Below, piece by piece: positions 4,658 to 36,110 of a stretch of DNA of 64,000 nucleotides. The DNA lies in assembly GCA_028277725.1 (NCBI GenBank), contig JANQFX010000118.1:241-64240 (forward strand), in the 5' to 3' direction. Within the stretch, counting starts at the first letter, position 1. The number at the start of each line of letters is the position of its first letter. The notes under the pieces were generated by a model. The model was not told the DNA's origin and did no database searches. It saw only the letters and a list, made by a program, of their open reading frames with translations. Origin of the DNA: Thiohalocapsa sp. Lineage in GTDB: Bacteria > Pseudomonadota > Gammaproteobacteria > Chromatiales > Chromatiaceae. The position numbers and the translations under genes were made by a program.

Positions 4658-5506
4658 TCAGGTCATCGGGTCCTGTGCCTTGCGTGTCCGGTCCAGGGCC
4701 CTCAGTGCCTTAAGCAGGCCGCGCAGCGCGTCCAGCCGCACGGAGTTGGGGCCGTCGCTCGCCGCGTTGTCCGGATCCTCGTGGACCTCCATGAACAGGC
4801 CGCCGACGCCGACGCCGATGGCCGCACTGGCGATCACAGGCACGTATTCTCGTTTGCCGCCGGAGGCGTTGCCGAGTGCACCGGGCATCTGCACGGCGTG
4901 GGTCGCGTCCATGATCACCGGATAGCCGGTCTTGGCCATTTCGTAGAGGCTGCGCGGGTCGACAACCAGGTTGCCATAGCCGAAGGTCGCACCACGCTCC
5001 ACCAGGGCCATCCTCTTGCAGCCCGTGGACTCGATCTTGCTCACCACGTTCGCCATGTCCCAGGGCGCGAGGAACTGCCCCTTCTTGACGTTGACGGTGC
5101 GGCCATACTCCGCCGCTGCCTCGCCCACCGCCAGCACGAAGTCCGTCTGCCGACACAGGAAGGCCGGGATCTGGAGCATGTCGACGACCTCGGCGACGGG
5201 GCGGCACTGGGCCTCGGTGTGTACGTCGGTGAGCACCGGGCAGCCGACCGTCTCGCGGACCTCCGCGAGGACGGCCAAGCCCTGCTCCAGCCCGACGCCG
5301 CGGCGGCCGGACAGGCTCGAGCGGTTGGCCTTGTCGAAGGACGCCTTGAAGACGTAGGGGATGCCGAGGTCCGAGCAGATGGCCGACACCTCGCCCGCGA
5401 GCATCATCGCGTGCTCGCGCGATTCGATTTGACAGGGGCCGGATTGCAGCACGAAGGGCAGATCGTTGCCGAGCGTGACGCCATCGAAAACTCGTATCTG
5501 TTGCAT
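4658..5506 (-). CDS. kdsA: 3-deoxy-8-phosphooctulonate (KDO8P) synthase
   Basis: Motifs GPCQIES, FKASFDKANRSS, QIPAFLCRQTD, KKGQF, DATHAVQ and SDGPN. Confidence 0.95.
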   Translation of the reverse strand: MQQIRVFDGVTLGNDLPFVLQSGPCQIESREHAMMLAGEVSAICSDLGIPYVFKASFDKANRSSLSGRRGVGLEQGLAVLAEVRETVGCPVLTDVHTEAQCRPVAEVVDMLQIPAFLCRQTDFVLAVGEAAAEYGRTVNVKKGQFLAPWDMANVVSKIESTGCKRMALVERGATFGYGNLVVDPRSLYEMAKTGYPVIMDATHAVQMPGALGNASGGKREYVPVIASAAIGVGVGGLFMEVHEDPDNAASDGPNSVRLDALRGLLKALRALDRTRKAQDPMT

Positions 5507-5879
5507 CGGGACTTCCCCGCGGCGGCGGCTTGGCTGGGATTGACTTCGCGTCGACGCCGAACTGTCGAAAACCGGTAGCTTACCGGACTCCGGCGCTGCA
5601 TGGGGTTGATGGCGGCGCGGGTTGCCGGGAGACTGAGCCTAGGTGGGCCTGCGTCTCTGCCAGTTCCGGGCTCCATTGGCCGGCGTTGCCCGTGTTCGTG
5701 TAGATGGCTCGGTGCCGTTGCCGTCGGTGTAGGGCGGCTATTGCCCGGTGCTTCGGCGCTCATTACCCTCATGTCGAAGCTGCCTCGAACCGGGGGATGC
5801 GTGTCTACCCGCAGGTGACCATGATCGAATCCGTTGCTGCCGAAGTGTCGTCGGCTCCGCTTGCGCTCAGGGAGACGAC

Positions 5880-6974
5880 ATGACCCTGCTGCGCGCCATG
5901 ACGCCCGACGACTATGGCCCCGTCGCCGCGCTGCTTCGCCGCAACGGGCTCGCCGCCGCGCCGGCCGCGGACTGGCGGGAACTGCTCGTTTCCAACCCGT
6001 TCCGTGACCCCGACGCGGACATGGGCTGGGTGCTGGAGGACGACGCCGGCGCCGTCGTCGGCACCTTCGGAAATCTGCGGCTGGGTTATGAATGGAATCG
6101 GCGCCCGCTGCGCACTGCGGCAGCCTATGCCTGGGCCGTCGACCCCGCCTATAGGGACGACTCCATCCGGCTGCTGCGCCGGTACATGCGCCAACCACGG
6201 ACCGATGTTCTGCTCACCAGCACCGCTAGCGCTCGGGTGGGCGAGATCTTCACGGCCGTGCGCTTCGAGCCCGTTCCACATCCGGACTATGACCAGGCGC
6301 TGTTCTGGGTCACCAACGCGTCGGGCTTCGTCGGTGCTGCGCTGCGGCAGAAGGGGGTTCCGCTGGCGGCGCTCCTGCGTTACCCGGCGGGCTTCTTGCT
6401 GTCAACGCTGGACCGCGGGTTCCGGCGCACGAGCCCCCCAGCGCCTGCAAGGGGCGGCTGGGGCGTCCATCGGCTGGATGCCTTCGACGCCCGCTTCGAC
6501 GACTTCTGGGAGCGCCTGCGCAGCACCCCTGATCGGCTGCTCGCGGTCCGCTCTGCCGCGGTGCTGTCCTGGCACTTCGCGCGGCTTGCGCGGCGCGGCC
6601 AGCTGGCGATCTTCGCGCTGGAGAGCGATACCGGACTCGATGGCTATCTCGTCATGTTCCGCCACGACCATGAGGCCATCGGCCTGACCCGCCATCGGGT
6701 CGCGGATCTGCAAGTGCTTGGCGACGTCGCGACCGGCACGCGGATGCTGCTTCAGGCTGCCCTGGCGCAGGCGGCAGAGGAGGGCGTGCATGCCCTCGAG
6801 GTCATCGGACTCAGTACAGAAAAGCGCGCGGCACTGCGCCGGCTCGTGCCCCGCCGGCGGCAACTCCCGAGCCGCCTGTTCTACTATCGGCCGCTGGACA
6901 AGGCCCTGGCGGCGCCCCTCGGCGACCCCAACGCCTGGGACCCGGGCCCCTACGACGGCGATGCCAGCCTGTAA
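5880..6974 (+). CDS. GNAT-fold acyltransferase (tandem GNAT-like, EPS-associated)
   Basis: GGAG RBS at 5871 then ATG 5880. 'WAVDPAYR' GNAT-like motif and C-terminal 'GD' motif. Adjacent to a deacetylase gene. Confidence 0.55.
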   Translation: MTLLRAMTPDDYGPVAALLRRNGLAAAPAADWRELLVSNPFRDPDADMGWVLEDDAGAVVGTFGNLRLGYEWNRRPLRTAAAYAWAVDPAYRDDSIRLLRRYMRQPRTDVLLTSTASARVGEIFTAVRFEPVPHPDYDQALFWVTNASGFVGAALRQKGVPLAALLRYPAGFLLSTLDRGFRRTSPPAPARGGWGVHRLDAFDARFDDFWERLRSTPDRLLAVRSAAVLSWHFARLARRGQLAIFALESDTGLDGYLVMFRHDHEAIGLTRHRVADLQVLGDVATGTRMLLQAALAQAAEEGVHALEVIGLSTEKRAALRRLVPRRRQLPSRLFYYRPLDKALAAPLGDPNAWDPGPYDGDASL

Positions 6975-7934: not shown

Positions 7935-9079
7935 GCGTCGCCGGGCCGTATCAACTCGTCGTAGAGCGCCTGATAGCGAGCGGCGATGACAGGTAGCGAA
8001 AAGCGAGTCTCGATCCGCTCGCGCGCGGCAGCGCCGAGTGCTGCGCGCTCGGTCGGTGAAAGCGACAGGATGCCTGACATGGCCTCCGCCAGCGCGGCCG
8101 GATCACGCGGCGGTGCGGCCCGGCCGGTGTCGCCGACGATCAACGCCGAGTCGCCGACGTCGGTGACCGCGCAGGGCACGCCGGCGCTCATGGCCTCCAG
8201 CAGCACCAGCGGGAAGGCCTCGCCGTAGGCAGAGGACATGACCGCGAGGTCCAGCGCAGCGGCGACCCTGGGCATATCGTGCCGCTTGCCGAGCAGGTGG
8301 AAGCGCCGGGCAATTCCGGTGGACTCGATCCAGCCCATCAGCTCCGCGTTGGCCGGCTCGCAGTCGGCGCCGACGAGGGCGAACTGCACCCGCGGGTGGC
8401 GCGCGCCGAGCATACCGGCGGCCTGCACGAAGTTGCGGTGGTCCTTCTGCGGATGGAAGCGGGCCAGCACGCCGGCGATCAGCGTATCCTGCGGTAGCCC
8501 GAGCTCCCGGCGGAGCGCGGCGTGTGCCTTCGCGTCAGGCCGGAAGGTGCCGGTGTCGATGCCGTTGGGGATGACGACGAACTTGTCCCTGTCGTAGCCG
8601 AGCTGGCCGTGCAGATGCGCGGCGACCTCCGAGCAGGAGATGATCCGCGTCGGCACCCGATGCGATAACCGGGCGCAGGCCCTGGCGATCAGGCGCGTGG
8701 CGCGTCGGGCTCGGGACTTGTCGAGGTCGCTATTGTGCAGGCCCCAGACCACCGGGGCGGAGGTCAGGGCGCGTGCGGCCAAGCCGCCGAACAGATCCGC
8801 GTGGTACATCCAGGTCTGGATGAGGTCCGGGCGCAGGCGTCGGATGTGGCGGGCGAGCTTGGTCAGGGCCAGCGGCGATCCAATCCCGCCGAAGTCGAGG
8901 CTCAGGACCTCGATGCCCTGTGCTTCGATGCTCGGCACTAGCTCCGTGAACACGCCGCCCGCCTTCAGCGACATCACCACCGGCTCCACCCGCGAGCGAT
9001 CCGTCTCGAACAGCAGCCGCATCAGCATGATCTCGGCGCCACCGACGCCGAGGTCGTTGATGATGTGGAGGACGCGCAA
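7931..9079 (-). CDS. Glycosyltransferase family 4
   Basis: Motifs 'GGAE', 'QTWMYHAD', 'IPNG', 'RFHPQKD' and 'EAFPLVLLEAM'. Confidence 0.9.
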   Translation of the reverse strand: MRVLHIINDLGVGGAEIMLMRLLFETDRSRVEPVVMSLKAGGVFTELVPSIEAQGIEVLSLDFGGIGSPLALTKLARHIRRLRPDLIQTWMYHADLFGGLAARALTSAPVVWGLHNSDLDKSRARRATRLIARACARLSHRVPTRIISCSEVAAHLHGQLGYDRDKFVVIPNGIDTGTFRPDAKAHAALRRELGLPQDTLIAGVLARFHPQKDHRNFVQAAGMLGARHPRVQFALVGADCEPANAELMGWIESTGIARRFHLLGKRHDMPRVAAALDLAVMSSAYGEAFPLVLLEAMSAGVPCAVTDVGDSALIVGDTGRAAPPRDPAALAEAMSGILSLSPTERAALGAAARERIETRFSLPVIAARYQALYDELIRPGDA

Positions 9080-9113
9080 CTGGGCAGAGTCCGGACGGAA
9101 CGGCCGCGCGTGA

Positions 9114-9371
9114 TCAGTCGTCGTTGAGTTCCAGGCGGCGCTCGATGCGCTGGAGCCGCTCGACGATCCGGTCGATGGATGCCTGCTGGCGGGCGATGTC
9201 CTCTGCCTGGCCAGCTTCGTCGCGGCGGATACCGGCGACGGCCGACTCCAGACGGTTGATCCGGTGTTTCACATCGGCGAACTCGGCGCGCATCTCTGTT
9301 TGCAGGCCCGCGACTTGATTGCGCATGGCCCGGAACTGCTCAAGGATCAGGTGTTCGATGTTGTCCGCCAA
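9114..9371 (-). CDS. Small coiled-coil hypothetical protein
   Basis: AAGGAG RBS then TTG 9371. Heptad-rich sequence ending RIERRLELNDD. Confidence 0.65.
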   Translation of the reverse strand: MADNIEHLILEQFRAMRNQVAGLQTEMRAEFADVKHRINRLESAVAGIRRDEAGQAEDIARQQASIDRIVERLQRIERRLELNDD

Positions 9372-9431
9372 GGCCGTTTCTCCTTGCTGTTTCCGGCAGC
9401 CTAGCACGTGTCCCGCATTACCGCAGGGCGG

Positions 9432-11105
9432 TCACGCGTCGCCCGCAAACAACGCCCGCCACAGCAACGCCAGGCTCATCAGCAGCATGGCGCCGGCCAT
9501 GATGGGCAGCAGCAGCGGGTAGTCGGACCGGGGTTCGCCGAAGAGCAGGACGGCTGTGGCCAGTCCAGCGAGCCCGAGCCCGCCGAAGGTCGCGAGCAGC
9601 CGGCGGTTGTTGTCGCCGATGTGGTTGCGGATGGCCTTGAGGTCGCCGGTGGCGCCGTCGGGATTGACGGTCGCCTGGCGCTCCAGCTGGTCGAGGATAC
9701 GCAGCAGCGCGACGGGCACATCGGGCACCTGCTCGGCGATGCTGGGCCAGTGGTGCAGGGTGCGCTGTACCAGCCGCTTGACGCCGACCTGCTCGCGCAT
9801 CCAGCGTTCCATGAAGGGCTTGGCAGTCGTCCAGAGATCGAGCTGCGGGTAGAGCTGGCGGCCGAGCCCCTCGATGTGGATCAGCGTCTTCTCCAGCAGC
9901 ACCAGCTGCGGTTGGATCTCCATGTCGAAGCGGCGCGCGGTCTGGAACAGATTCACCAGGAAGCTGCCGAAGCCGATCTCGGCGATGGGCTTCTCGAAAA
10001 TGGGCTCGCAGACCGTTCGAATGGCGGACTCGAACTCCTCCACCCGCGTCTCATGTGGCACCCAGCCGGACTCCAGGTGCAGCTCCGCGACGCGGCGGTA
10101 GTCGCGGCGGAAGAAGGCGAGCAGGTTTTCGGCCAGATAGCGCTGGTCTTCCTTGGTAAGGGTGCCGACGATGCCGAAGTCCACCGAGATATAGCGGCCG
10201 GACGGCTCGACGAAGATGTTGCCCGGGTGCATGTCGGCGTGGAAGAAGTTGTCCCGGAAGACCTGGGTGAAGAAGATCTCCACGCCGCGGGTGCCGAGCT
10301 GGCGCATGCTCACGCCCTGTGCCTTCAGCTCCTCCACCTTGGACACCGGCGTGCCGTAGATGCGCTCCATCACCATGACGTTGGTGCGCGTCCAGTCCCA
10401 GTACACCTCCGGGATGTAGAGCATTTCGCTGTCGCGGAAGTTGCGCCGCAGCTGCGAAGCGTTGGCGGCCTCACGCTGCAGGTTCAGCTCGTCGAGGATG
10501 GTCTTCTCGTACTCGCGTACCACCTCCACCGGGCGCAGCCGGCGGCCGTCCGGCCAGTAGCGCTGGGCGAGGCCGGCGAAGACGTACATGAGTTGCACGT
10601 CGCGGCGGATGGTCTTCTCGATGCCGGGGCGCAATACCTTGACGATGACCTGCTTGGTCTCGCCGCGCTCCAGCTTGAGCTCGGCGGTGTGGACCTGGGC
10701 GATGGACGCGGAGGCGAGCGGCGTCTCGTCGAAGGCCTCCAGCACCGACTCGATGGGCCGGCCCCATGCCGCCTCGATCAGGGCTCGCGCCTCGGGACCG
10801 GGGAAGGGCGGCACCCGGTCCTGGAGCTTGGCCAATTCCTCGGCCATGTCCTCGGGCAGCAGGTCGACGCGCGTCGAGAGGAGCTGCCCGAATTTGATGA
10901 AGATCGGCCCCAGCTCCTCCAGCGCGAGCCGGATTCGCACGGGGTAGGGCGGCAGGTCGCGCTTGATCCAGTTCCAAGGGGCCAGATAGACGACGAACCG
11001 CAGGGGGCTCAGCACGGGGATGGACGCGATGGCCTCGTCGAGCCCGTGCTTCAACAGCACGAAGTTGATGTGCAGCAGACGCAGGGTCTGCGGAATGCGA
11101 AGCAT
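9432..11105 (-). CDS. ubiB: Ubiquinone biosynthesis regulatory kinase UbiB
   Basis: Motifs [25 protein letters not shown] and HADMHPGN. Lies in the ubiEJB operon. Confidence 0.95.
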
Positions 11106-22956: not shown

Positions 22957-23241
22957 GCCGGGTGGCCGGGGACGTCACCGGCGTCCGCTTGCGTTTCTGA
23001 GGGTTGGTCCTGTGTGGCACGCGCGACGTCCGGTCCGTCGTCGCTGCCGACGCCAAGCCGCCGGCGCCGGGGCTTCGGCGAGCGTCGAGCCTGGGCACCA
23101 AGCATTTGTGTGTGCTGCTCTTGGCAACCCTTGGAATGGCAGAAATCACGCAGATCTGCTATGTTGGAGAGTTTAGTCTCAGCGTCTAGACTCGCTCGCA
23201 GTTGACCGACGCAATCGCTTCACCGTCGAACAGGTATCCGC

Positions 23242-25062
<1,821 letters not shown>

Positions 25063-25182
25063 CGCGGCTGTCGCCGCGTCAGACGTGGCGGGCTGTCGCC
25101 CGCCACCGCCGCAAAGGGCGATCGCGCGGCGCATCGGATCTTCCTCTCTCCGCGTCCCGCTGCCGCGCGACGCACCTCTCTT

Positions 25183-25469: not shown

Positions 25470-25485
25470 GGGCGCAGATCTTGCT
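25470..25485 (+). promoter_or_regulatory. Putative sigma54 (-24/-12) promoter
   Basis: GGGCGCAGATCTTGCT has exact GG-N10-GC spacing with TTGCT. Confidence 0.55.
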
Positions 25486-25585
25486 TATAAAGCAAAAATT
25501 GTTGCCAGCAAGGGTCTGGTGGAAAAACCGGGCCGCCGCCGTGGGCGAAGGGCTGGTTTCGCCGTCGTTTGGAGCTTCTCCCCAC

Positions 25586-27469
25586 ATGCCAAGACAACGT
25601 TTGCTTTCTCTGGCCATGGCCGCTGCGCTTGCGGGTGCTGTCGTGCCGGCAGTGGCTGTGAACATCGACCCCAGCACCTACAACGTCCTCGCGGAATCGG
25701 ATGTTGGAGCCTACAACGACTGGCTTGCGACTTGCACAAACGTGACAGCCGGGGTTGGCACTTGTGGCAGCGCTAGTGCCCCACTGGATAGCGATACCAC
25801 CCTATTCTTCTGGGACAGCGCCGGAGACTCCGACAATAGCGTCATCCAAGCCCAGTGGACCGATCCGGCCAAGAGCGTCCCCATCACGCAGGTGCGAATC
25901 TCGACGCCCCTGAGCGCAACCGAACTCATCGGCGTTCCAGGTGGCCCGTCGGATCTTCAGACAACGACAGGAACCAACGTCAGTTTTGCAGCAGGTGAAG
26001 CCTCTCAGGGGCAGGGCGTGTTCCTAGCCTATGGGCGAAATGTGTACGATGGCACTTTGGATCCTGGCGACTTGATCGGGCCGAACGACTTTCTCGCGAC
26101 GAACGCGGCGGTTCAGCCGGCGTTCATTTCATTCCAGTTCGGTGTCACCATGCCGGGCAGGGCCCAGCAGTCCCGACTTCATCAGACGAATCCCTTCCAG
26201 TACTACAACCCCTTGGGGGCAGATACGGCAGTCCCCGACGCTTTGAAACCGGACAATGTCGACCTGACCATCGGTATAGGGGACGCGGTTCAGCTGCAGC
26301 AGGGTCAGTCGGTCGAGGTCGAGTTGTTTGCCGTTGGCGGTTTTGACCCGAACGGTCAACCCCAAATCCCGGGAGACGTACCCGTCGGCATTTCCGACGA
26401 CCTCGCGATCGAGTTCCTGACCGAGGTGTTGGACGTCACCCAAGGCGTCGGTGACCTCACCTTCTCGCCCACCCGTGCGGGCACCGTCAATGGGGATAAG
26501 GTCAGCCTGACGGCCACCAGCGACGGTACGGCTTCCACGGAGCTGGACGGGCAGTTCGATGCATTTGCGGAGAGCGCGATCAAGGTCCAGGGTAGCCCCG
26601 CTGCCACCCCCTTCACGCTTGCCGCCCCCGGAACATCCGGGGATAGCACGGACCGGGTCTACGAGTTGGACGCGAGCGGCATTGCACTAACGCTCGATGA
26701 CGCCGGCAAGACCGGCGACGATTTCAAGTCTAGCGGGGCGCAGGCGGTGCGGCATACGGGTCTCGCAGCCGCTGATGTTGTGTACAATCGAACCATCCAG
26801 GGTGAGGTGGTCGGCCCCGTCTTGGGCGTTGAGGGCAAGATGAACCCGGATGATCCGGCCGCGACGCTGGAGTACGGCAGTACCATCAATCTCAGCACCA
26901 TCACTGACCCGGTCGATGCCAAGGCCTGCAACCAAGGCTCCGTTGGTGGTTGCCCGACGCTTGAGTTGGCGATCGGCAATCTGTTCGGCGAGGCCCTCGG
27001 CGATCTGACCAGCCTTAGCATTCGCAATATCGCGTTGGGCGGCCCCGGAGCCGCTTTCTTCAATCTCTTCGCCGATGACTGCTCGTCGGGGACCGACTAC
27101 ACCGAGAGCGGGGTCTTGACCCAAGGCGACGCAACCGGCGGCTTCGACTTTCCGGGGCTCTGCGTCACCTTCACGCCGCCGGCCTCGGATCCGGGCACGG
27201 GGACGGCCGATCTGAGCGGCGTCGCTGCAACCGTCGACCGCCAGTTCACCGCAACCCTGACCCTGTTCTCCGACATGAACCGCGAGTTTGAGACCTTCAA
27301 CGACGGGGAGTCGACGACGCTGTACAACCTGTCCGCTTGGGCGCGTTATTCGTCTCCGTCCACGGCCCCGCTGCCGGCGCCGCTGGCGCTCCTGGCCGCG
27401 GGCCTCGTCGGCCTGGCCGGGGTCCGCGCACGGCTGGGACAGCGCTCGCATACCCGCGCCGACAACTGA
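25586..27469 (+). CDS. Secreted surface protein with a PEP-CTERM-type (PLPA variant) sorting tail
   Basis: Signal peptide MPRQRLLSLAMAAALAGAVVPAVA; acidic T/G/D-rich beta body; C-terminal APLPAP + TM helix + Arg cluster. Confidence 0.8.
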   Translation: MPRQRLLSLAMAAALAGAVVPAVAVNIDPSTYNVLAESDVGAYNDWLATCTNVTAGVGTCGSASAPLDSDTTLFFWDSAGDSDNSVIQAQWTDPAKSVPITQVRISTPLSATELIGVPGGPSDLQTTTGTNVSFAAGEASQGQGVFLAYGRNVYDGTLDPGDLIGPNDFLATNAAVQPAFISFQFGVTMPGRAQQSRLHQTNPFQYYNPLGADTAVPDALKPDNVDLTIGIGDAVQLQQGQSVEVELFAVGGFDPNGQPQIPGDVPVGISDDLAIEFLTEVLDVTQGVGDLTFSPTRAGTVNGDKVSLTATSDGTASTELDGQFDAFAESAIKVQGSPAATPFTLAAPGTSGDSTDRVYELDASGIALTLDDAGKTGDDFKSSGAQAVRHTGLAAADVVYNRTIQGEVVGPVLGVEGKMNPDDPAATLEYGSTINLSTITDPVDAKACNQGSVGGCPTLELAIGNLFGEALGDLTSLSIRNIALGGPGAAFFNLFADDCSSGTDYTESGVLTQGDATGGFDFPGLCVTFTPPASDPGTGTADLSGVAATVDRQFTATLTLFSDMNREFETFNDGESTTLYNLSAWARYSSPSTAPLPAPLALLAAGLVGLAGVRARLGQRSHTRADN

Positions 27470-29069: not shown

Positions 29070-29118
29070 CTCTCCAGCAGACGACATCAACAGTCCTTCG
29101 CGTGAGCCCCGACAAGCC

Positions 29119-29472
29119 ATGAGCCAGTACATCCATCACGTACCCGGTCGACTCCGGATCCGCTCCCAGTCCCTGCGTTGCCGTTCGGACAAGGCGCTCG
29201 CCGCCCAGAACCGGCTCGTCTCCATGGACGGGGTGCAGTCGGTGCGCATCAACCCGCGCGCCGGCAGCATCACCATCCTCTATGATGCCGATGTGCTGGG
29301 GCAGGCCGACCTGCTGGGCACCCTGCACGAGGTCGGCTGCATGTCCGGCACCGTTCGCTCCGACGAGCATGTCCGCAAGATGGCCGATACTTTCGGTAAG
29401 GCATTGGTCGGTGCGGTCATGCAGAAGGCCATGGAGCAGTCGGCGCGCACCCTGGTGGGCGCCCTGATCTGA
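29119..29472 (+). CDS. HMA2-type domain protein (FezC-like)
   Basis: 'YIHHVPGRLRIRS...GVQSVRINPRAGSITILYD': ferredoxin-like fold without CxxC, plus an amphipathic C-terminal tail. Confidence 0.75.
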   Translation: MSQYIHHVPGRLRIRSQSLRCRSDKALAAQNRLVSMDGVQSVRINPRAGSITILYDADVLGQADLLGTLHEVGCMSGTVRSDEHVRKMADTFGKALVGAVMQKAMEQSARTLVGALI

Positions 29473-29947
29473 TGCCGCCCAGGACTGCGCAACCCCACCG
29501 GCGCTTATCCGAGCACGATGCGCGGCAGCGTAAGGCATGACCGGCCGCCCAGCCGGTCCTTCCACACTTGAGCCGGACCGGTACTGAACTCGCAGGGTCG
29601 GCCCGCGCCGGTCGGTCCGTGCCGACCCCTTCATCCTCTCCTCCCCGGCCGGGCTACTGCGAGCCGAAACAAGGGCCGCGGGCATCAGTGCTCGCTCGCT
29701 GTACCGCCCCGTGCGTCCTTGCACGGCGGTGTGGGCCGCCTTACAGTCCTTCTGCTGAGTTGCGTTATTTTCCTTGCGGAATCGAGTCGCCCCCCTACTC
29801 GGTTCTGCGGGGCCGTGCAAGAGAGTAGACTTGCGCGACCGGTACGCGCCCGGTCCGGGCGCCGGGATCGTGCGTCGGGTCCTCAGGCGGACCGGGCGGC
29901 GCCAACGCGATGATATAGCCGCCATTTGCGACAGGAGAGCAGACAAC

Positions 29948-30931
29948 ATGAGCGAACACGAGCAGGGTGGGCGAGCCCAGACGGGGGCGCAGGGAGGGAT
30001 GCCGCAGGGCATCTCCGGCGCCCAAGGCCAGGCTGCGGCCGGCTCGAATGTTGGAGAAGGCCAGGCGATCTATGGCGCCATGGGATCGGTGCAAGGTCAG
30101 GCGCCAGCGCAGGGCGCTGGCAAGGACACACAGCCGAGCGCTGGGCAGGCCGCTGGACCCGCCATGGCCGACGTACAGCAGGGTGGACCGGCCATGCAGC
30201 CACCCGCACAGGAGGCCGGGCAGCAAGCCGGGATGGCCGCGATGCAGGGCTATTCCGCGAATGGCGCCGCGGGCTATCCGGCTGGACCTGCCGCGCAGGG
30301 CTATGGCGTGGCTGCCTATGCGCAGTACGCCGCACCGATGATGGGCGCGGGCCCAGCCGGTTATGCGCAAAGCGACCAGATGCAGGGCGGACAGATGCAC
30401 GGCGCGATGTCGGGCGCTACCTACGCCTCGCCGCAGATGACGCCTGCGCAGACGGCCCAATCCCAGACCGCTCAGGCGCAGGTGCCGCCCGGTGCTTACC
30501 CCCAATACGCGCCGCAGTACGCCATGCAGTACCCGGCCCAGCCCGCGCCCCAGTATCTGCCCCAATACCCTTACGCCTATGCGCCGGTTGCCCCGGCAGC
30601 GATGGGTGCCGGGCCCCAGCAGCCGCCGGCCGGCACCCCCGGGGCCGCCGGCGGCCAAGCCGGCCGCGGCCAGGCCGGCATCGCCTCCCTGATGGAGGAG
30701 ATCAACAACGGCGGCACCGGCCTCAATAGCCTGAGCCAGATGCTCAACCTCGACGACACGGAGTTCTGGAAGGGCGCCCTGGTGGGTGCCGCCGCGGTGG
30801 TGCTGTTCACCAACGAGTCGGTCCAGAACGCCCTGTTCAAGACCGGCGCCAAGACGTCCGAGGCCATGCGCAGCGGTGTCGACAAACTCAAGTCGGCGGC
30901 GGGCGATGCCGCGGGCGAGGCGAAGGAGTAG
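29948..30931 (+). CDS. Q/G/A/Y/P-rich low-complexity protein with a C-terminal GxxxG membrane helix and amphipathic helix (YtxH/FezA-like)
   Basis: AGGAG upstream of ATG 29948. About 260 aa disordered region, then 'FWKGALVGAAAVVLFTNESVQ'. Confidence 0.7.
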   Translation: MSEHEQGGRAQTGAQGGMPQGISGAQGQAAAGSNVGEGQAIYGAMGSVQGQAPAQGAGKDTQPSAGQAAGPAMADVQQGGPAMQPPAQEAGQQAGMAAMQGYSANGAAGYPAGPAAQGYGVAAYAQYAAPMMGAGPAGYAQSDQMQGGQMHGAMSGATYASPQMTPAQTAQSQTAQAQVPPGAYPQYAPQYAMQYPAQPAPQYLPQYPYAYAPVAPAAMGAGPQQPPAGTPGAAGGQAGRGQAGIASLMEEINNGGTGLNSLSQMLNLDDTEFWKGALVGAAAVVLFTNESVQNALFKTGAKTSEAMRSGVDKLKSAAGDAAGEAKE

Positions 30932-30937
30932 CGACCC

Positions 30938-31315
30938 ATGAGCGAGACCTACCCAGTCCACTACCTGCCGTCGTCCATGGTGCAACAGAGCCCGGCGCCC
31001 GCCCCCGCGGCTACCGACTGCTCGGCACTGATCGGATACGCCACCCTCGGCGCCGTTGTGGGTGCGTCCGCGGCGGGTGGTGCCAACATCCTGCGGGTGC
31101 AGCGCGAGGAGCTCACCGCCACCGAGGCCCTGGCCGATACGGGCAAGGCTGCCCTGGCCGGCGCTGCTGCAACCGCCGTGGCTGGGGCCGCCGCGGGTCT
31201 CGTGGCCAAAGAGGGGGTCACCCGCCTGGCCGTGCTGCTCGCCGCCGGCACCGCCGTGATGTACGGTATCCAGCGCCGCTGGGGCGCCGAAGCGCTGGTG
31301 GAGGATCAACCATGA
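30938..31315 (+). CDS. MamC-like membrane protein (copy 1)
   Basis: 'LGAVVGASAAGGANILRVQREELTATEALADTGKAALAG' closely parallels the MamC/Mms13 TM-loop-TM as recalled. AAGGAG RBS. Confidence 0.75.
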   Translation: MSETYPVHYLPSSMVQQSPAPAPAATDCSALIGYATLGAVVGASAAGGANILRVQREELTATEALADTGKAALAGAAATAVAGAAAGLVAKEGVTRLAVLLAAGTAVMYGIQRRWGAEALVEDQP

Positions 31316-31497
31316 GTTCCCATATGCAGCGCCAGCGCCATGGCGTCGCGAAGAACATCGCCGAGGGCGTCGGTGGGCTCGTGGTCGGCGCCGCCGCCGT
31401 GGTGTTGTTGCGGAGCCTGTTCAAGAAGAAATCCTCGACAACGACGCCGGCGGCGCCGAACCAGTTGGCTGAACCCACGAAGGAGGTCGAGGCATGA
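31312..31497 (+). CDS. Small single-TM GxxxG protein
   Basis: GGAGG RBS; ATGA overlaps at both ends; 'GVGGLVVGAAAVVLLRSLFKKK'. Confidence 0.65.
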   Translation: MSSHMQRQRHGVAKNIAEGVGGLVVGAAAVVLLRSLFKKKSSTTTPAAPNQLAEPTKEVEA

Positions 31498-31895
31498 GTC
31501 ACTACGAATCCAACCCCGGCCTGCCCTTGGCCTATCACGACCAGGCCCTCAGGCACGATGCCTATCCGAACGCCCACCAGCGCTCCGCTTATCCGGCGGG
31601 CGCCGGCAGCAGCTATCTGGAGCTCGGCAAACTCGGGGCCACGGTCGGGCTTTGCGGCGCGGCCGCGGCCAACCTGCACAAGCTGCGGAACGAGCAAGTG
31701 ACCGGCGGCGAGGCGATCATCGACAGCCTGCGCACGGGCGCCGCCGCGGGGCTCGCTACGGCGGCGGCCGGCTACATCGCCAACCAATTCAGGAGCCCCA
31801 CCACCTCGCTTGCGGCGACGCTGATCGCGGGCACCGCCTTTATGTATTTGCTGAACAGCGATGGCCCAGTGGAGGCCGAAGGAGACAAGTCATGA
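31494..31895 (+). CDS. MamC-like membrane protein (copy 2)
   Basis: 'LGATVGLCGAAAANLHKLRNEQVTGGEAIIDSLRTGAAAGLATAAA'; AGGAGG RBS. Confidence 0.75.
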   Translation: MSHYESNPGLPLAYHDQALRHDAYPNAHQRSAYPAGAGSSYLELGKLGATVGLCGAAAANLHKLRNEQVTGGEAIIDSLRTGAAAGLATAAAGYIANQFRSPTTSLAATLIAGTAFMYLLNSDGPVEAEGDKS

Positions 31896-32344
31896 GCTAT
31901 GGCCAGAACCAACAGGGCCAGATGATGGGTTACCCGGCCGGTCAGATGCCAACGGGCCAGATGGGCGCCGGCCAGATGGGCGTTGGCATGCAGCAGGCGA
32001 TGGGCGGCACCCCGATTGGTGCGAATATGGCTGCGCAGATCCAGTATCCGCAGTCCGGGTATGTGCAGCCGGGCTACTATGTCGCGACCTATCAGCCCTA
32101 TCCGCAGCAGCAGCCCAGCCTGCTGTCTGGGCTCACCACCGACCGCTTCCTGAAGGGCCTGCTGGTGGGCGCCGCGGCGGCCTACATCCTCACCAACGAG
32201 TCCGTTCAGCGCACGGCCATCAAGGGTGCGGTCAAGGCGTGGACGACCGTGCAGGGCGGTCTGGAGGAGGTCAAGGAGCGCTTCCAGGACGCCGAGGCCG
32301 AATTGCACGCGGCCGAGGCCGCGAAGCCCTCGAACGCCGGTTAG
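31892..32344 (+). CDS. Q/G/M/Y-rich N-terminus plus GxxxG helix and coiled coil (YtxH/FezA-like)
   Basis: AAGGAG RBS; ATGA overlap; 'FLKGLLVGAAAAYILTNESVQ...EEVKERFQDAEAE'. Immediately precedes the ATPase. Confidence 0.75.
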   Translation: MSYGQNQQGQMMGYPAGQMPTGQMGAGQMGVGMQQAMGGTPIGANMAAQIQYPQSGYVQPGYYVATYQPYPQQQPSLLSGLTTDRFLKGLLVGAAAAYILTNESVQRTAIKGAVKAWTTVQGGLEEVKERFQDAEAELHAAEAAKPSNAG

Positions 32345-32393
32345 GGACGCGCCTCAACCCAGACAGAGCAGTTGACCGCGCTGGCTCCTTACG

Positions 32394-34538
32394 ATGTCGA
32401 GCATGGATTATCACATCGTACACGAGTTGCCGGGCCGGTTGCGGCTGCGCATCCCGTCCATGGGCGAGCCCGGTTACGAGGCGTCCTATCTCGAGTCCTG
32501 GATGGACGTGGCGGCGCCCGTGCAGGAGGTCCGCTGTAATCGCGCCTCCAGGTCGCTGGTGATCATCTTCGAGCAGCGTGATGGGGCCAGGGACGCGATT
32601 CTGCGCCGGCTGGACGCCTTTTCCCCGGAGCAGATCCCCGGCTTCAGTGAGGACGGCGTCCGCGACGCCGAGGTCGCGCCGATGATCACCACGGCCGCGA
32701 CGATCGCCCTGCTTCCCTTCCTCCCTCCGGTCATGCAGCGGCTGCTGACCTTCGTCAACGTCAGCTCCACCCTCGCCAAGGGGGCCGATACCCTGGTGAA
32801 CGAAGGGGTCAAGATGGAGGTGCTCGACGCCCTGGCCGTCGGGCTGGCGGCGGGCAAGGGGGAGGTCTACACCGCCAACATCACCGACTTCCTGCTGAGC
32901 CTGGGCGAGTTCCTGGAGCGGCGCACGGAGCGCCAGTCCGACCGCCTGCTGCGGCGCCTGTTGCGCCCGGAGCCGGCCATGGCCTGGGTGGAGCGCGACG
33001 GCGAGCTGGTGCAGGTGGCCGGGGACGAGGTGCTGGCGGGCGAGATCGTCAGCGTTGGCGTCGGAGAGACCATCCCGGCGGATGGGCGCGTGGTGGAAGG
33101 TGCCGCGCTGGTCAATCAGGCGGCGGTCACGGGTGAGGATGTGCCTGTGCGTCGCGAGGCGCCGAAGCGGGTCATCGCCGGCTCGACGCTGGTGGAAGGC
33201 CGCATCCGCGTGGAGGCGACCCATGTCGGCGACGACACCACCACGGCGCGGGTCTCGCGCTTCATCCAAGACTCCCTGAGCAAGCAATCGGATACGCAGC
33301 GGCTCGCCGAACGCCTTGCCGACAAGCGGGTCTATCTGACGCTGGGCACGGGTGGCCTGGTCTATGCCCTGACCCGCGACCTGACCCGGCTGCAGGCGGT
33401 CTTTTTGGTGGACTACTCCTGCGCGCTCAAGCTCGGCACACCGGTGGCGTTCAAGTCCGGCATGTACCGGGCCGCGGCACACGGCGTGCTGATGAAGGGT
33501 GGCGATGCCATCGAGCACCTGGCCGCGGTGGACACCGTCGTCTTCGACAAGACCGGTACCCTGACCCATAGCGACCTCATCGTCACGGACGTGGTCGTGC
33601 TCGGCAACGGCGAGACCTGTTCCGAACAGGACCTGCTTGCGCTGGTGGCCTCCGTGGAGGAGCATGCAAGCCACCCGGTCGCCAAGGCCGTGGTGGAGGC
33701 CGCCCGCGAGCGCGATCTGCAGCACATCTCCCACGGCGAGGTGGACTACATGGTCGCCCACGGCATGGCCGCGGATATCAAGAAGGGCGGGCGCATTTTC
33801 GTCGGTAGCCGGCACTACCTCGAGGAACACCTCGACATCCACTTCGGCCGCTTCGAGCAGCGCATCGAAGCATTCCAGGAGGAGGGCAAGACGCTGCTGT
33901 TCGTCGGCAACCAGGACGGGCCCGTGGGCCTGGTCGCCCTGCGCGACACCCTGCGAGAGGACGCATCTACCGCGCTGCAGCGGCTGCGCACCCTCGGCAT
34001 CGAGCGACTGGTCATGATCACCGGTGACCGCCGCAACAAGGCCGAGGCCCTGGCGCGCGAGGTGGGCATCGACGAGGTGTATGCCGACATGCGCCCCGAG
34101 GAGAAGGCCGGCGTCATCCAGCGACTCCAGCAGGAGGGGCGCAAGGTCGCCTTCGTCGGCGACGGTGTCAACGATGGGCCCGCCCTCGCCACCGCGGAGG
34201 TGGGCATTGCCATGCCGCGTGGCGCAGACATCGCCCGGGCCACCGCCGATATCGTGCTGATGGACGATCGCTTGGACGTGGTCGCGGACGCTCGCGAGAT
34301 TGCGACTAAGACCATGCGCATGATCCGCGGGAACTTCAACGCCGCCGTCGGCATCAATACCGGCGTACTGGCCGGTGCCATCATGGGCTGGCTGTCCCCG
34401 GTGGCTAGCGCGGTGCTGCACAATGGCACCACCATCGGTATCCTGCTCAATGCCCTGCGCGGCGTGCAGCTATCCAGCGACGCCGAGCAGCCGTTGGGCC
34501 GGCGGGTAACCGCATTTCGGGATTCGCTGGCCGAGTAA
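32394..34538 (+). CDS. fezB: Heavy-metal P-type ATPase, P1B-6 / FezB type
   Basis: N-terminal 'HELPGRLRLR', TGE, DYSCALKL in place of CPC, DKTGT, HP, TGD, GDGVND and HNGTT. Start may be 32403. Confidence 0.85.
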   Translation: MSSMDYHIVHELPGRLRLRIPSMGEPGYEASYLESWMDVAAPVQEVRCNRASRSLVIIFEQRDGARDAILRRLDAFSPEQIPGFSEDGVRDAEVAPMITTAATIALLPFLPPVMQRLLTFVNVSSTLAKGADTLVNEGVKMEVLDALAVGLAAGKGEVYTANITDFLLSLGEFLERRTERQSDRLLRRLLRPEPAMAWVERDGELVQVAGDEVLAGEIVSVGVGETIPADGRVVEGAALVNQAAVTGEDVPVRREAPKRVIAGSTLVEGRIRVEATHVGDDTTTARVSRFIQDSLSKQSDTQRLAERLADKRVYLTLGTGGLVYALTRDLTRLQAVFLVDYSCALKLGTPVAFKSGMYRAAAHGVLMKGGDAIEHLAAVDTVVFDKTGTLTHSDLIVTDVVVLGNGETCSEQDLLALVASVEEHASHPVAKAVVEAARERDLQHISHGEVDYMVAHGMAADIKKGGRIFVGSRHYLEEHLDIHFGRFEQRIEAFQEEGKTLLFVGNQDGPVGLVALRDTLREDASTALQRLRTLGIERLVMITGDRRNKAEALAREVGIDEVYADMRPEEKAGVIQRLQQEGRKVAFVGDGVNDGPALATAEVGIAMPRGADIARATADIVLMDDRLDVVADAREIATKTMRMIRGNFNAAVGINTGVLAGAIMGWLSPVASAVLHNGTTIGILLNALRGVQLSSDAEQPLGRRVTAFRDSLAE

Positions 34539-34649
34539 CAGCCATCCACAAGGGCCGCCGCTCCAGGGACGGTTGATCGCGAGACCCGTGTCGGCGTGAC
34601 CGGCCGCGGTCTGAGCCTTGTGGCCCTAGTCATTCGAGGACACCAATCG

Positions 34650-34901: not shown

Positions 34902-35693
34902 TCAGGCGATGGGCTCCGGCGCCAGGGCATGGGCCGCGAGACCTCCACCGAAGCGCTCGCGCATCCTCGTCAGCAGAGGCGCTCGATCAGCGTTTGGCGA
35001 GCGCAATAGCCGCTGTGTGGCCGGCCCCCAGGCGTCGGGTCGGCCTGCGGGTAGGGTCCTGACCCTGGCGCTGCCGGATGCCTGGCCTTTATCGGTCGCG
35101 GACCGAGTCTGGCGCCCCGTCCTAGCGCCTTGTGCGGGCATGTGCCGAGTCCATTCCTGCCACCAGCAGCGCACCGTCGAACGCAGGAGCCAGACCGTGA
35201 GGCGGCGCTGCACCGCGCACCAGGGGCAACTCGTGGCCTTGCGAGGGCCGCAGCGGTCGCGTGGGCGGATCATGGCCGGGGGATGTGTCCGCGCCTTGCC
35301 CCGTTGCCGCGCTGGGCCTGGTCGAGGGGCGCGTCGCCATTGGTGCCCGCTCCAGAATGCGTTCCCGCTGCCTTTGCCCTTACGACGATCGAGCGGCGCT
35401 TCATCGCGCTCTGATGCGTTGCTTTGACATGGGGTGCTGCGCAGGCGCTCCGGGGTCAAGGTTACCGGGTCGTAGCGCACCACCAGGCTCGCGCAGCGCA
35501 TATTGAGGCGTACGGAGTGCACCCCCGGCTGGCGTGCCATGGTGGCGGCGATGTCCTGCATCCAGGCCGCCTCGAGGCTGGCCTTGTCGCGTGTGCCCGC
35601 AGTCCGCCCTGCGGCGTTCGGCGGCCGTTGTTGCGGCGGCGACTGGATACGGAAGCGGACCCTTCCCGGTACCTGATGGCGTATTTGGAGCAT
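34902..35693 (-). CDS. HMA2-type domain protein with an Arg-rich CPWC-containing extension
   Basis: 'IRHQVPGRVRFRI...GVHSVRLNMRCASLVVRYDP' is paralogous to 29119 and to the ATPase N-terminus. Confidence 0.6.
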   Translation of the reverse strand: MLQIRHQVPGRVRFRIQSPPQQRPPNAAGRTAGTRDKASLEAAWMQDIAATMARQPGVHSVRLNMRCASLVVRYDPVTLTPERLRSTPCQSNASERDEAPLDRRKGKGSGNAFWSGHQWRRAPRPGPARQRGKARTHPPAMIRPRDRCGPRKATSCPWCAVQRRLTVWLLRSTVRCWWQEWTRHMPAQGARTGRQTRSATDKGQASGSARVRTLPAGRPDAWGPATQRLLRSPNADRAPLLTRMRERFGGGLAAHALAPEPIA

Positions 35694-35735
35694 GGCTGAC
35701 TCGAGAAAAACACATTGATCCTGTCCGCGTACTCT

Positions 35736-35754
35736 ATTGCGAATCGCTTGCATT
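35736..35754 (-). promoter_or_regulatory. Putative Fur box
   Basis: ATTGCGAATCGCTTGCATT, an AT-rich 19-mer about 43 bp upstream of the 35693 start. Confidence 0.5.
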
Positions 35755-36110
35755 AGCAATGATGCGTCGGATGTCCTATGCTCGAGGTGTCCGAGTCTAA
35801 CCGGGAGTCCGTGTAGCTGATGCGAAGCGATTCTGACAAGACATGCAAGCGTCGCGCGCCGTCGGGCGCGGGGGGCGTTTGCGAGGGTTCCAGCCCTGAG
35901 GGCGGCCCGGTTGCACCGGCTTCGCAGTTTCGCCGCCGTGCCTGGCGCTGGTTTGCCCAGACGGTCCGGGCGATGCCTTTGACGGGACGCGGACGCCGCT
36001 GGGCACTGCTGAGAGCCCTGGCGGCGGAGCGGGCGACGACCGGGCCGCGTGGCCGGTGAGTCGAGCCTGAACGGCGACCGTAGGACCGGACGCCCTGTCT
36101 TGAGGTCCGG

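Follow-up and report, generated by a model that had tools for sequence, protein, structure and literature searches.

Two MamC-like paralogues in a predicted ferrosome (fez) gene cluster of Thiohalocapsa sp.

What are two proteins that resemble the magnetosome protein MamC doing in a genome region that holds no magnetosome genes? This question is raised by two neighbouring open reading frames (ORFs), termed A and B, which lie at positions 30938–31315 (+) and 31494–31895 (+) of a 64,000-nucleotide stretch of contig JANQFX010000118.1 from Thiohalocapsa sp. (Chromatiaceae; a purple-sulfur-type bacterium), the whole of which is called the window below. A preliminary description took them for luminal mineral-templating subunits of a non-magnetosome iron organelle that keep the acidic ExxxD loop of MamC, and for a possible evolutionary bridge between ferrosomes and magnetosomes. 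The answer reached here is that A and B are probably FezF-type, MamC-family integral structural proteins of the ferrosome membrane. A preprint by Grant et al. describes FezF as a small protein with predicted transmembrane (TM) helices, encoded in six-gene fez operons in Shewanella putrefaciens CN-32 and in Rhodopseudomonas palustris CGA009 (10.1101/2020.01.10.902569).

A has 125 residues, with AAGGAG 8 nucleotides 5′ of its ATG, and B has 133. The two are 38% identical across 94 residues, and both begin with N-terminal tails rich in Pro, Gln, Tyr and His. The loop of A, LTATEALADTGK, occupies residues 59–70 (nucleotides 31112–31147), and that of B, VTGGEAIIDSLR, begins at residue 69 (nucleotide 31698), so that both ORFs and both loops lie where they had first been placed. 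The TM-loop-TM layout given to them is a simplification, since a hydropathy scan gives three hydrophobic segments rather than two. The first (H1) is rich in Gly and Ala. After it, about 20 residues form a polar connector in which ExxxD is found; then comes H2, which a short polar turn (KEGVTR in A, NQFRSPTT in B) splits from H3.

A search of a local Pfam copy that lacks PF26373 gave no family for A or B. In precomputed annotation, all 50 B homologues carry the Pfam domain PF26373.1, and the database thus already groups them in one family, PF26373. A literature search on this family returned no paper, the cluster-member listings gave no informative names for 10 family members, and no relative of solved structure was found (best E 0.37).

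MamC homology and the fez cluster

The NCBIfam model of MamC (NF038051) has 97 positions and a curated cut-off of 100 bits. It matches A with an E-value of 1.6e-6 (28.3 bits, profile positions 9–91 of 97) and B with 7.1e-9 (35.9 bits, positions 11–88 of 97), and these are its only matches in the genome. Both scores are far under 100 bits, and by score neither protein is a member of the MamC equivalog. In the other direction, a search of 1.84 billion proteins with a profile of B-type proteins, made from B and 32 relatives, finds 221 cluster representatives at E<=1e-3 and recovers true MamC proteins, which score 134.8, 117.4 and 114.7 bits on the NCBIfam model, at E-values of 2.9e-9 to 1.7e-7. 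When the B-type alignment is compared by hhalign with an alignment of six MamC-type sequences, the probability is 98.5% and the E-value 2e-15 over 80 columns, and GEAIIDSLR of B is paired with QEAIIDTGK of MamC, that is, ExxxD on ExxxD. The profile alignment to the MamC family that had been proposed as a check is therefore significant, though under the equivalog cut-off. Profile similarity is reciprocal and extends over the whole core, and on these comparisons A and B are true remote homologues of MamC within the same superfamily. The MamC loop quoted in the preliminary description is similar to the loops of the retrieved true MamC proteins, though not identical to them.

By their motifs and gene content, the genes around A and B form a fez (ferrosome) cluster of the typical kind, which includes a genuine FezB-type P1B-6 ATPase. 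This P-type ATPase is encoded at 32394–34538 (+), has 714 residues, matches TIGR01525 with an E-value of 3.1e-152 and contains RLRLR at residue 15, DYSCA at 340, DKTGT at 385 and HNGTT at 676. The preprint defines FezB by two transmembrane motifs, D[Y/F]SCA and HNxxT, together with an R-rich motif near the N-terminus, and the other fez hallmark that it names is a hydrophobic region with GxxxG (10.1101/2020.01.10.902569). Besides the FezB motifs, the window contains GxxxG in three proteins or peptides and has two R-rich proteins of the HMA_2 type. The "iron organelle" of the preliminary description thus has a sound basis, as this is an iron-organelle locus, but it is an ordinary ferrosome cluster, with nothing intermediate between it and a magnetosome.

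The gene order in the window is HMA_2, GxxxG, MamC-like, (61-residue peptide, MamC-like), GxxxG, FezB. It recurs in 24 of 25 genome loci, with the FezB homologue directly 3′; the contig of the 25th stops before FezB. These loci come from Halochromatium, Lamprobacter, Thiohalocapsa, Candidatus Thiosymbion, other Chromatiales, a Rhodospirillaceae bacterium and a Motiliproteus. The same linkage to FezB is found in both of the other genomes with a sub-threshold MamC match in a 401-genome sample of the phylum, one of which (locus L051) has a clean six-gene layout that fits what the preprint's text says of the S. putrefaciens operon. It is also found in 6/6 metagenome loci of the subgroup nearest to true MamC in the tree described below, which were retrieved with a narrow alignment of that subgroup. 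Two paralogues are present in 12 of 27 related loci and one in 14; a further locus (L025) has no called ORF in this count, although tblastn detects the gene. In the very divergent L050 and L051, the labels "A" and "B" are nominal.

Several observations on related loci stand beside this pattern. The metagenome fez loci of the MamC-nearest subgroup have one or two extra flanking P1B ATPase genes, 30–38% identical to FezB (at 5172–6734 and 12229–14415 of L063, and at the upstream ends of L064 and L066), which are possibly of the FezH type mentioned in the preprint (10.1101/2020.01.10.902569). In Thiohalocapsa halophila (L024, 8891–10654), the FezB match comes in two pieces of 60% and 45% identity and the MamC-like match covers residues 42–80 only; this fez cluster may be decaying. 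The organism of the window is itself known from coral metagenome assemblies alone, and positions 29100–34540 are present in four coral metagenome runs of one study, two of which are possibly the source of the assembly; no RNA run is among the runs listed.

The remaining genes of the cluster can be taken in order. At 29104–29472 (+) lies the gene of an R-rich protein with an HMA_2 domain (Pfam, E 1.9e-10), RLRIR at residue 16 and no hydrophobic segment; its product would be soluble and chaperone-like, FezD-like by description, and its homologues adjoin the cluster in most related loci. The gene at 29948–30931 (+), for which ATG 29948 was chosen as the start inside ORF 29774–30931, encodes a protein rich in Gln, Ala, Pro, Gly and Met. 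This protein is FezE-like, with one C-terminal hydrophobic segment, EFWKGALVGAAAVVLFTNESV, that contains GxxxG/A; it has no Pfam or NCBIfam match, and its C-terminal region is kept in 25/25 genome loci, immediately 5′ of the MamC-like gene. Between A and B, at 31312–31497 (+), a 61-residue peptide has a single helix with a GxxxG motif (GLVVG). It has a tblastn match between the paralogues in 14 of the 25 related loci, all of which have two paralogues or remnants of them. The GxxxG protein encoded at 31892–32344 (+) has the segment RFLKGLLVGAAAAYILT, with GLLVG, and a tblastn homologue between the MamC-like gene and FezB in 24/25 loci, the exception being L017, whose contig ends first.

ATGA overlaps occur at three successive junctions, namely A with the 61-residue ORF, this ORF with B, and B with the gene at 31892–32344, and each start of the coupled genes has a Shine-Dalgarno sequence. 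These features mean that the genes are almost certainly translated as one operon. Divergent from the operon is an ORF at 34902–35759 (−), with a likely start further in, near 35690, for an R-rich protein (RVRFR) with a weak HMA_2 match (E 1.4e-5, 25.5 bits, cut-off 30). Whether this ORF belongs to the cluster is uncertain; two related loci (L003, L020) have homologues of it next to the cluster, and L024 has one in part. Its product has a Cys-containing C-terminal part and lacks a hydrophobic segment, and it is not an obvious FezC. Just 5′ of the cluster, the ORFs at 23179–25134 (−) and 25481–27469 (+), of 651 and 662 residues, have no Pfam match at E<=0.01.

The acidic pair and the proposed role

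A and B would occupy the position of FezF, that is, of a small hydrophobic protein encoded between two GxxxG-protein genes and 5′ of fezB. In the proposed role, both would sit as integral proteins in the ferrosome membrane, where their Gly/Ala/Thr-rich helices would pack with each other, with the GxxxG proteins and with FezB, and they may contribute to forming the vesicle into which FezB pumps iron, or to setting its size. If MamC is a guide, the polar helix that joins H1 to H2 would lie on the luminal side, where contact with the iron-phosphate granule is conceivable, and a fixed Glu-x3-Asp template would not be required.

This last point is where the proposed role departs from the preliminary description, which puts the loop in the lumen and has its Glu-x3-Asp pair bind iron and template or shape the mineral, as has been claimed for MamC on magnetite. 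For MamC, iron binding and a template effect in vitro have been ascribed to Glu66 and Asp70, the distance between them matching iron spacings on magnetite faces (PMC6584501). An acidic pair (E/D-x3-D) is indeed present in A and B, aligned column for column with that of MamC, in which ExxxD is found in four and DxxxD in two of the six MamC-type sequences. The pair is also kept by most of the closest B-type metagenomic relatives, and there may be local selection for it in this sublineage.

Conservation in the wider family tells against a template. Among syntenic orthologues, ExxxD occurs in 1/13 of the A type and 5/25 of the B type; GxxxD, ExxxN, DxxxN, QxxxN and others are common variants, and in Halochromatium roseum (L007) neither paralogue has it. 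The family was further represented by 138 non-redundant sequences, also used for the tree, which remained after 13 fragmentary or frameshifted rows (P0069, P0078, P0084, P0106, P0110, P0136, P0149, P0152, P0163, P0181, P0188, P0189 and P0192) and the fused protein P0051 had been left out. Of these 138, Glu at position 73 is found in 61, Asp at 77 in 54 and ExxxD in 26, while 42 have some kind of acidic pair. The conserved positions are others: G48 (137 of 138), Y118 (129), A74 (127), A88 (123), A56 (117) and G52 (116), so that these Gly, Ala and Tyr residues are kept in 84–99% of the representatives. A74 is the very alanine that adjoins the Glu of ExxxD; the helix is conserved and its charges are not. 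This preference for Gly, Ala and Tyr over E73 and D77 favours helix packing, and the counts suit a helix that is itself conserved, with polar positions often occupied by an acid or an amide, better than they suit a fixed metal-binding pair.

The mineral itself points the same way. In C. difficile, the ferrosome mineral is reported to be a ferrous phosphate that resembles vivianite but is disordered and lacks long-range order (10.64898/2026.06.16.732667), and a mineral of this kind would offer no lattice spacing for a template to match. The retention of ExxxD as a conserved templating site is therefore not borne out, ExxxD being largely unconserved among orthologues, which the preliminary description had itself named as grounds for giving the idea up. 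The mineral-templating inference is weak, and a templating role for A and B is unlikely.

Pump subunits, magnetosome genes and composition

Rather than building the organelle, A and B might serve the FezB pump as small subunits for its regulation or assembly. KdpF and phospholamban-type peptides serve other P-type ATPases in such a way. The translational coupling of the genes within the operon and the tight adjacency to FezB, kept in 24/25, 2/2 and 6/6 loci, would suit such a role. Against it stands the fact that true MamC works in genomes without a FezB-type pump: in the 401-genome sample, none of the 15 genomes with MamC over the cut-off has a full-length FezB-type match (best <=298 bits, over residues ~150 to 689 only). 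The genome of the window also has a second FezB-like P1B-6 ATPase, which has no such partner. A pump-subunit role is thus improbable, and a structural role in the ferrosome membrane is preferred.

The second ATPase is encoded at 8721–10907 (−) of locus L060 (G000:C25:39000-54714), with 44% identity, DYSCA-type and HNGST-type motifs and RRLRLR. Its neighbours are an ORF that, judged by eye, may be FeoA-like, and the genes of a small HMA-like protein and of a FeoB-like protein; neither MamC-like nor GxxxG genes are found near it in this locus.

A further possibility is that the organism is a cryptic magnetotactic bacterium, with A and B as its MamC, and that the 16% of the genome missing from the assembly contains the remainder of a magnetosome island. 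There are magnetotactic Gammaproteobacteria whose placement is close to Chromatiales. The assembly is just 83.66% complete, and all genome-wide results on mam genes apply within it. Both CDF proteins of the genome are under the MamM and MamB cut-offs (199 and 180 vs 350), the best MamB score being 180.8 bits. A scan of the genome found no LemA (MamQ-family) match and no match to MamU, MamW, MamJ or MamL, and MamN reached 218 against a cut-off of 500; the MamL model is a poor control, over its cut-off in 0/3 MamC/MamB-positive genomes, and its negative carries little weight. The MreB_Mbl family, searched as a proxy for MamK without a magnetotactic positive control, gave three weak partial matches only and no clear MreB, which could mean a coccoid organism or a gene within the 16% that the assembly lacks. 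No mam gene among the families tested therefore reached its cut-off, and the absence of magnetosome genes noted for the surroundings of A and B holds genome-wide for every family tested.

True MamC keeps different company. MamB is over its cut-off in 14 of the 15 genomes with true MamC, as opposed to 0/3 of those with a sub-threshold match, and in three of the sampled genomes (G006, G014 and G022) MamC lies 18–32 kb from MamB on the same contig. None of eight 20-kb loci around true MamC has a homologue of FezB, of the GxxxG proteins or of HMA_2. The scores of A and B (28–36 bits against the MamC cut-off of 100) and the occurrence of the same fez operon in cultured Halochromatium, Lamprobacter and Thiohalocapsa, none of which is known to be magnetotactic, make a hidden magnetosome island very improbable. 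Both proteins thus stand outside any magnetosome gene set, as first noted.

Least credible of all is that the MamC likeness is a compositional artefact of Ala/Gly-rich hydrophobic helices: GAST residues do make up 44–48% of each protein, but on a hidden Markov model (HMM) built from the six MamC-type sequences A and B score 43.8 and 45.6 bits, whereas 1000 full shuffles of each protein reach at most 8.7 (A) and 9.7 (B) bits, 1000 shuffles of each in 12-residue blocks reach at most 20.2 bits (0/1000 for either protein match the real score) and the reversed proteins give −3.3 and 1.4 bits, the profiles detect each family in both directions, and the polar connector is included in the alignment. 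As far as sequence statistics reach, this explanation is refuted, and the likeness to MamC first seen in both proteins is confirmed by the NF038051 matches, the profile-profile comparison and the shuffles.

Some points nevertheless weigh against reading A and B as FezF-type structural proteins of the ferrosome. The equivalence with FezF rests on synteny and on a one-line description in the preprint's text. The three hydrophobic segments are compatible with either a 2-TM or a 3-TM layout. The second FezB-like ATPase, having no MamC-like neighbour, means that such proteins are not obligatory for every P1B-6 pump. ExxxD is present in both window proteins and in the majority of their nearest metagenomic relatives, and the acidic pair may be under local selection in this sublineage. 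Finally, the Ala/Gly richness of the family raises profile scores somewhat, although the shuffles speak against composition as the cause.

Evolution and comparison with named systems

A quick, unrooted IQ-TREE run on the 138 representatives (113 columns) places A in a clade of 24 rows and B in a clade of 13, each with an SH-aLRT of 98; these separate and well-supported clades indicate that the duplication is old. A single clade (SH-aLRT 92) unites five MamC sequences and lies within a group of 33 rows (SH-aLRT 88), these branches not being strongly supported. The members of this group nearest to MamC reach ~70 bits on the MamC model, and the sampled ones that are not MamC are those linked to fez genes in 6/6 metagenome loci. 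The tree is compatible with an origin of MamC within a ferrosome-associated family, and the direction of descent is not established. The evolutionary bridge of the preliminary description thus survives in a weak sense, in that one small membrane-protein family is common to both gene sets, and lacks its direction.

A broader reading can be offered tentatively, in which MamC arose from a FezF-type protein, FezF-type proteins face the lumen and set the size of the iron-phosphate granule, and A and B of Chromatiaceae form a hetero-oligomer. MamC is the most abundant protein of the magnetosome membrane. If this reading were true, some of the magnetosome's membrane proteins would have been taken over from the ferrosome, the more widespread organelle of the two.

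In D. magneticus, ferrosomes and magnetosomes are genetically distinct according to the text of the preprint (10.1101/2020.01.10.902569), and a common small membrane-protein family would be a concrete and testable link between them. It raises the questions of whether FezF-type proteins share the location and action of MamC, whether they could take its place, and which of the two came first. No paper that ties MamC to ferrosomes was found in the searchable literature, a search that did not extend to the Nature 2022 ferrosome paper and its supplementary tables, so that the link may already be in print. MamC occurs nowhere in the ferrosome preprint (10.1101/2020.01.10.902569), its supplementary tables set aside, and a literature search on "FezF" returned vertebrate Fezf genes only. 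The locus itself adds little beyond another example; its contribution is the clear negative on ExxxD conservation and the presence of two ancient paralogue types.

Compared with the FezF operons, the locus shares a small TM protein that is co-encoded with two GxxxG proteins, an R-rich chaperone-like protein and FezB, and the gene order here and in L051 fits the description that the preprint's text gives; a Chromatiaceae fez cluster, Thimo_2900, has already been catalogued there (10.1101/2020.01.10.902569). It differs from the FezF operons in having two divergent paralogues, 38% identical, with the 61-residue GxxxG peptide in between. With MamC, A and B share the helix-connector-helix core and the conserved G, N, EA..D-type connector, ATA and Y positions. 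They differ from it in their Pro/Gln/Tyr/His-rich N-terminal tails, in having MYLLN or MYGIQ where MamC has its C-terminal KY[LA]WD, and in scores far under the equivalog cut-off, true members reaching 114.7–134.8 bits. Their context is fez and not mam, and the mineral associated with them is expected to be iron phosphate rather than magnetite.

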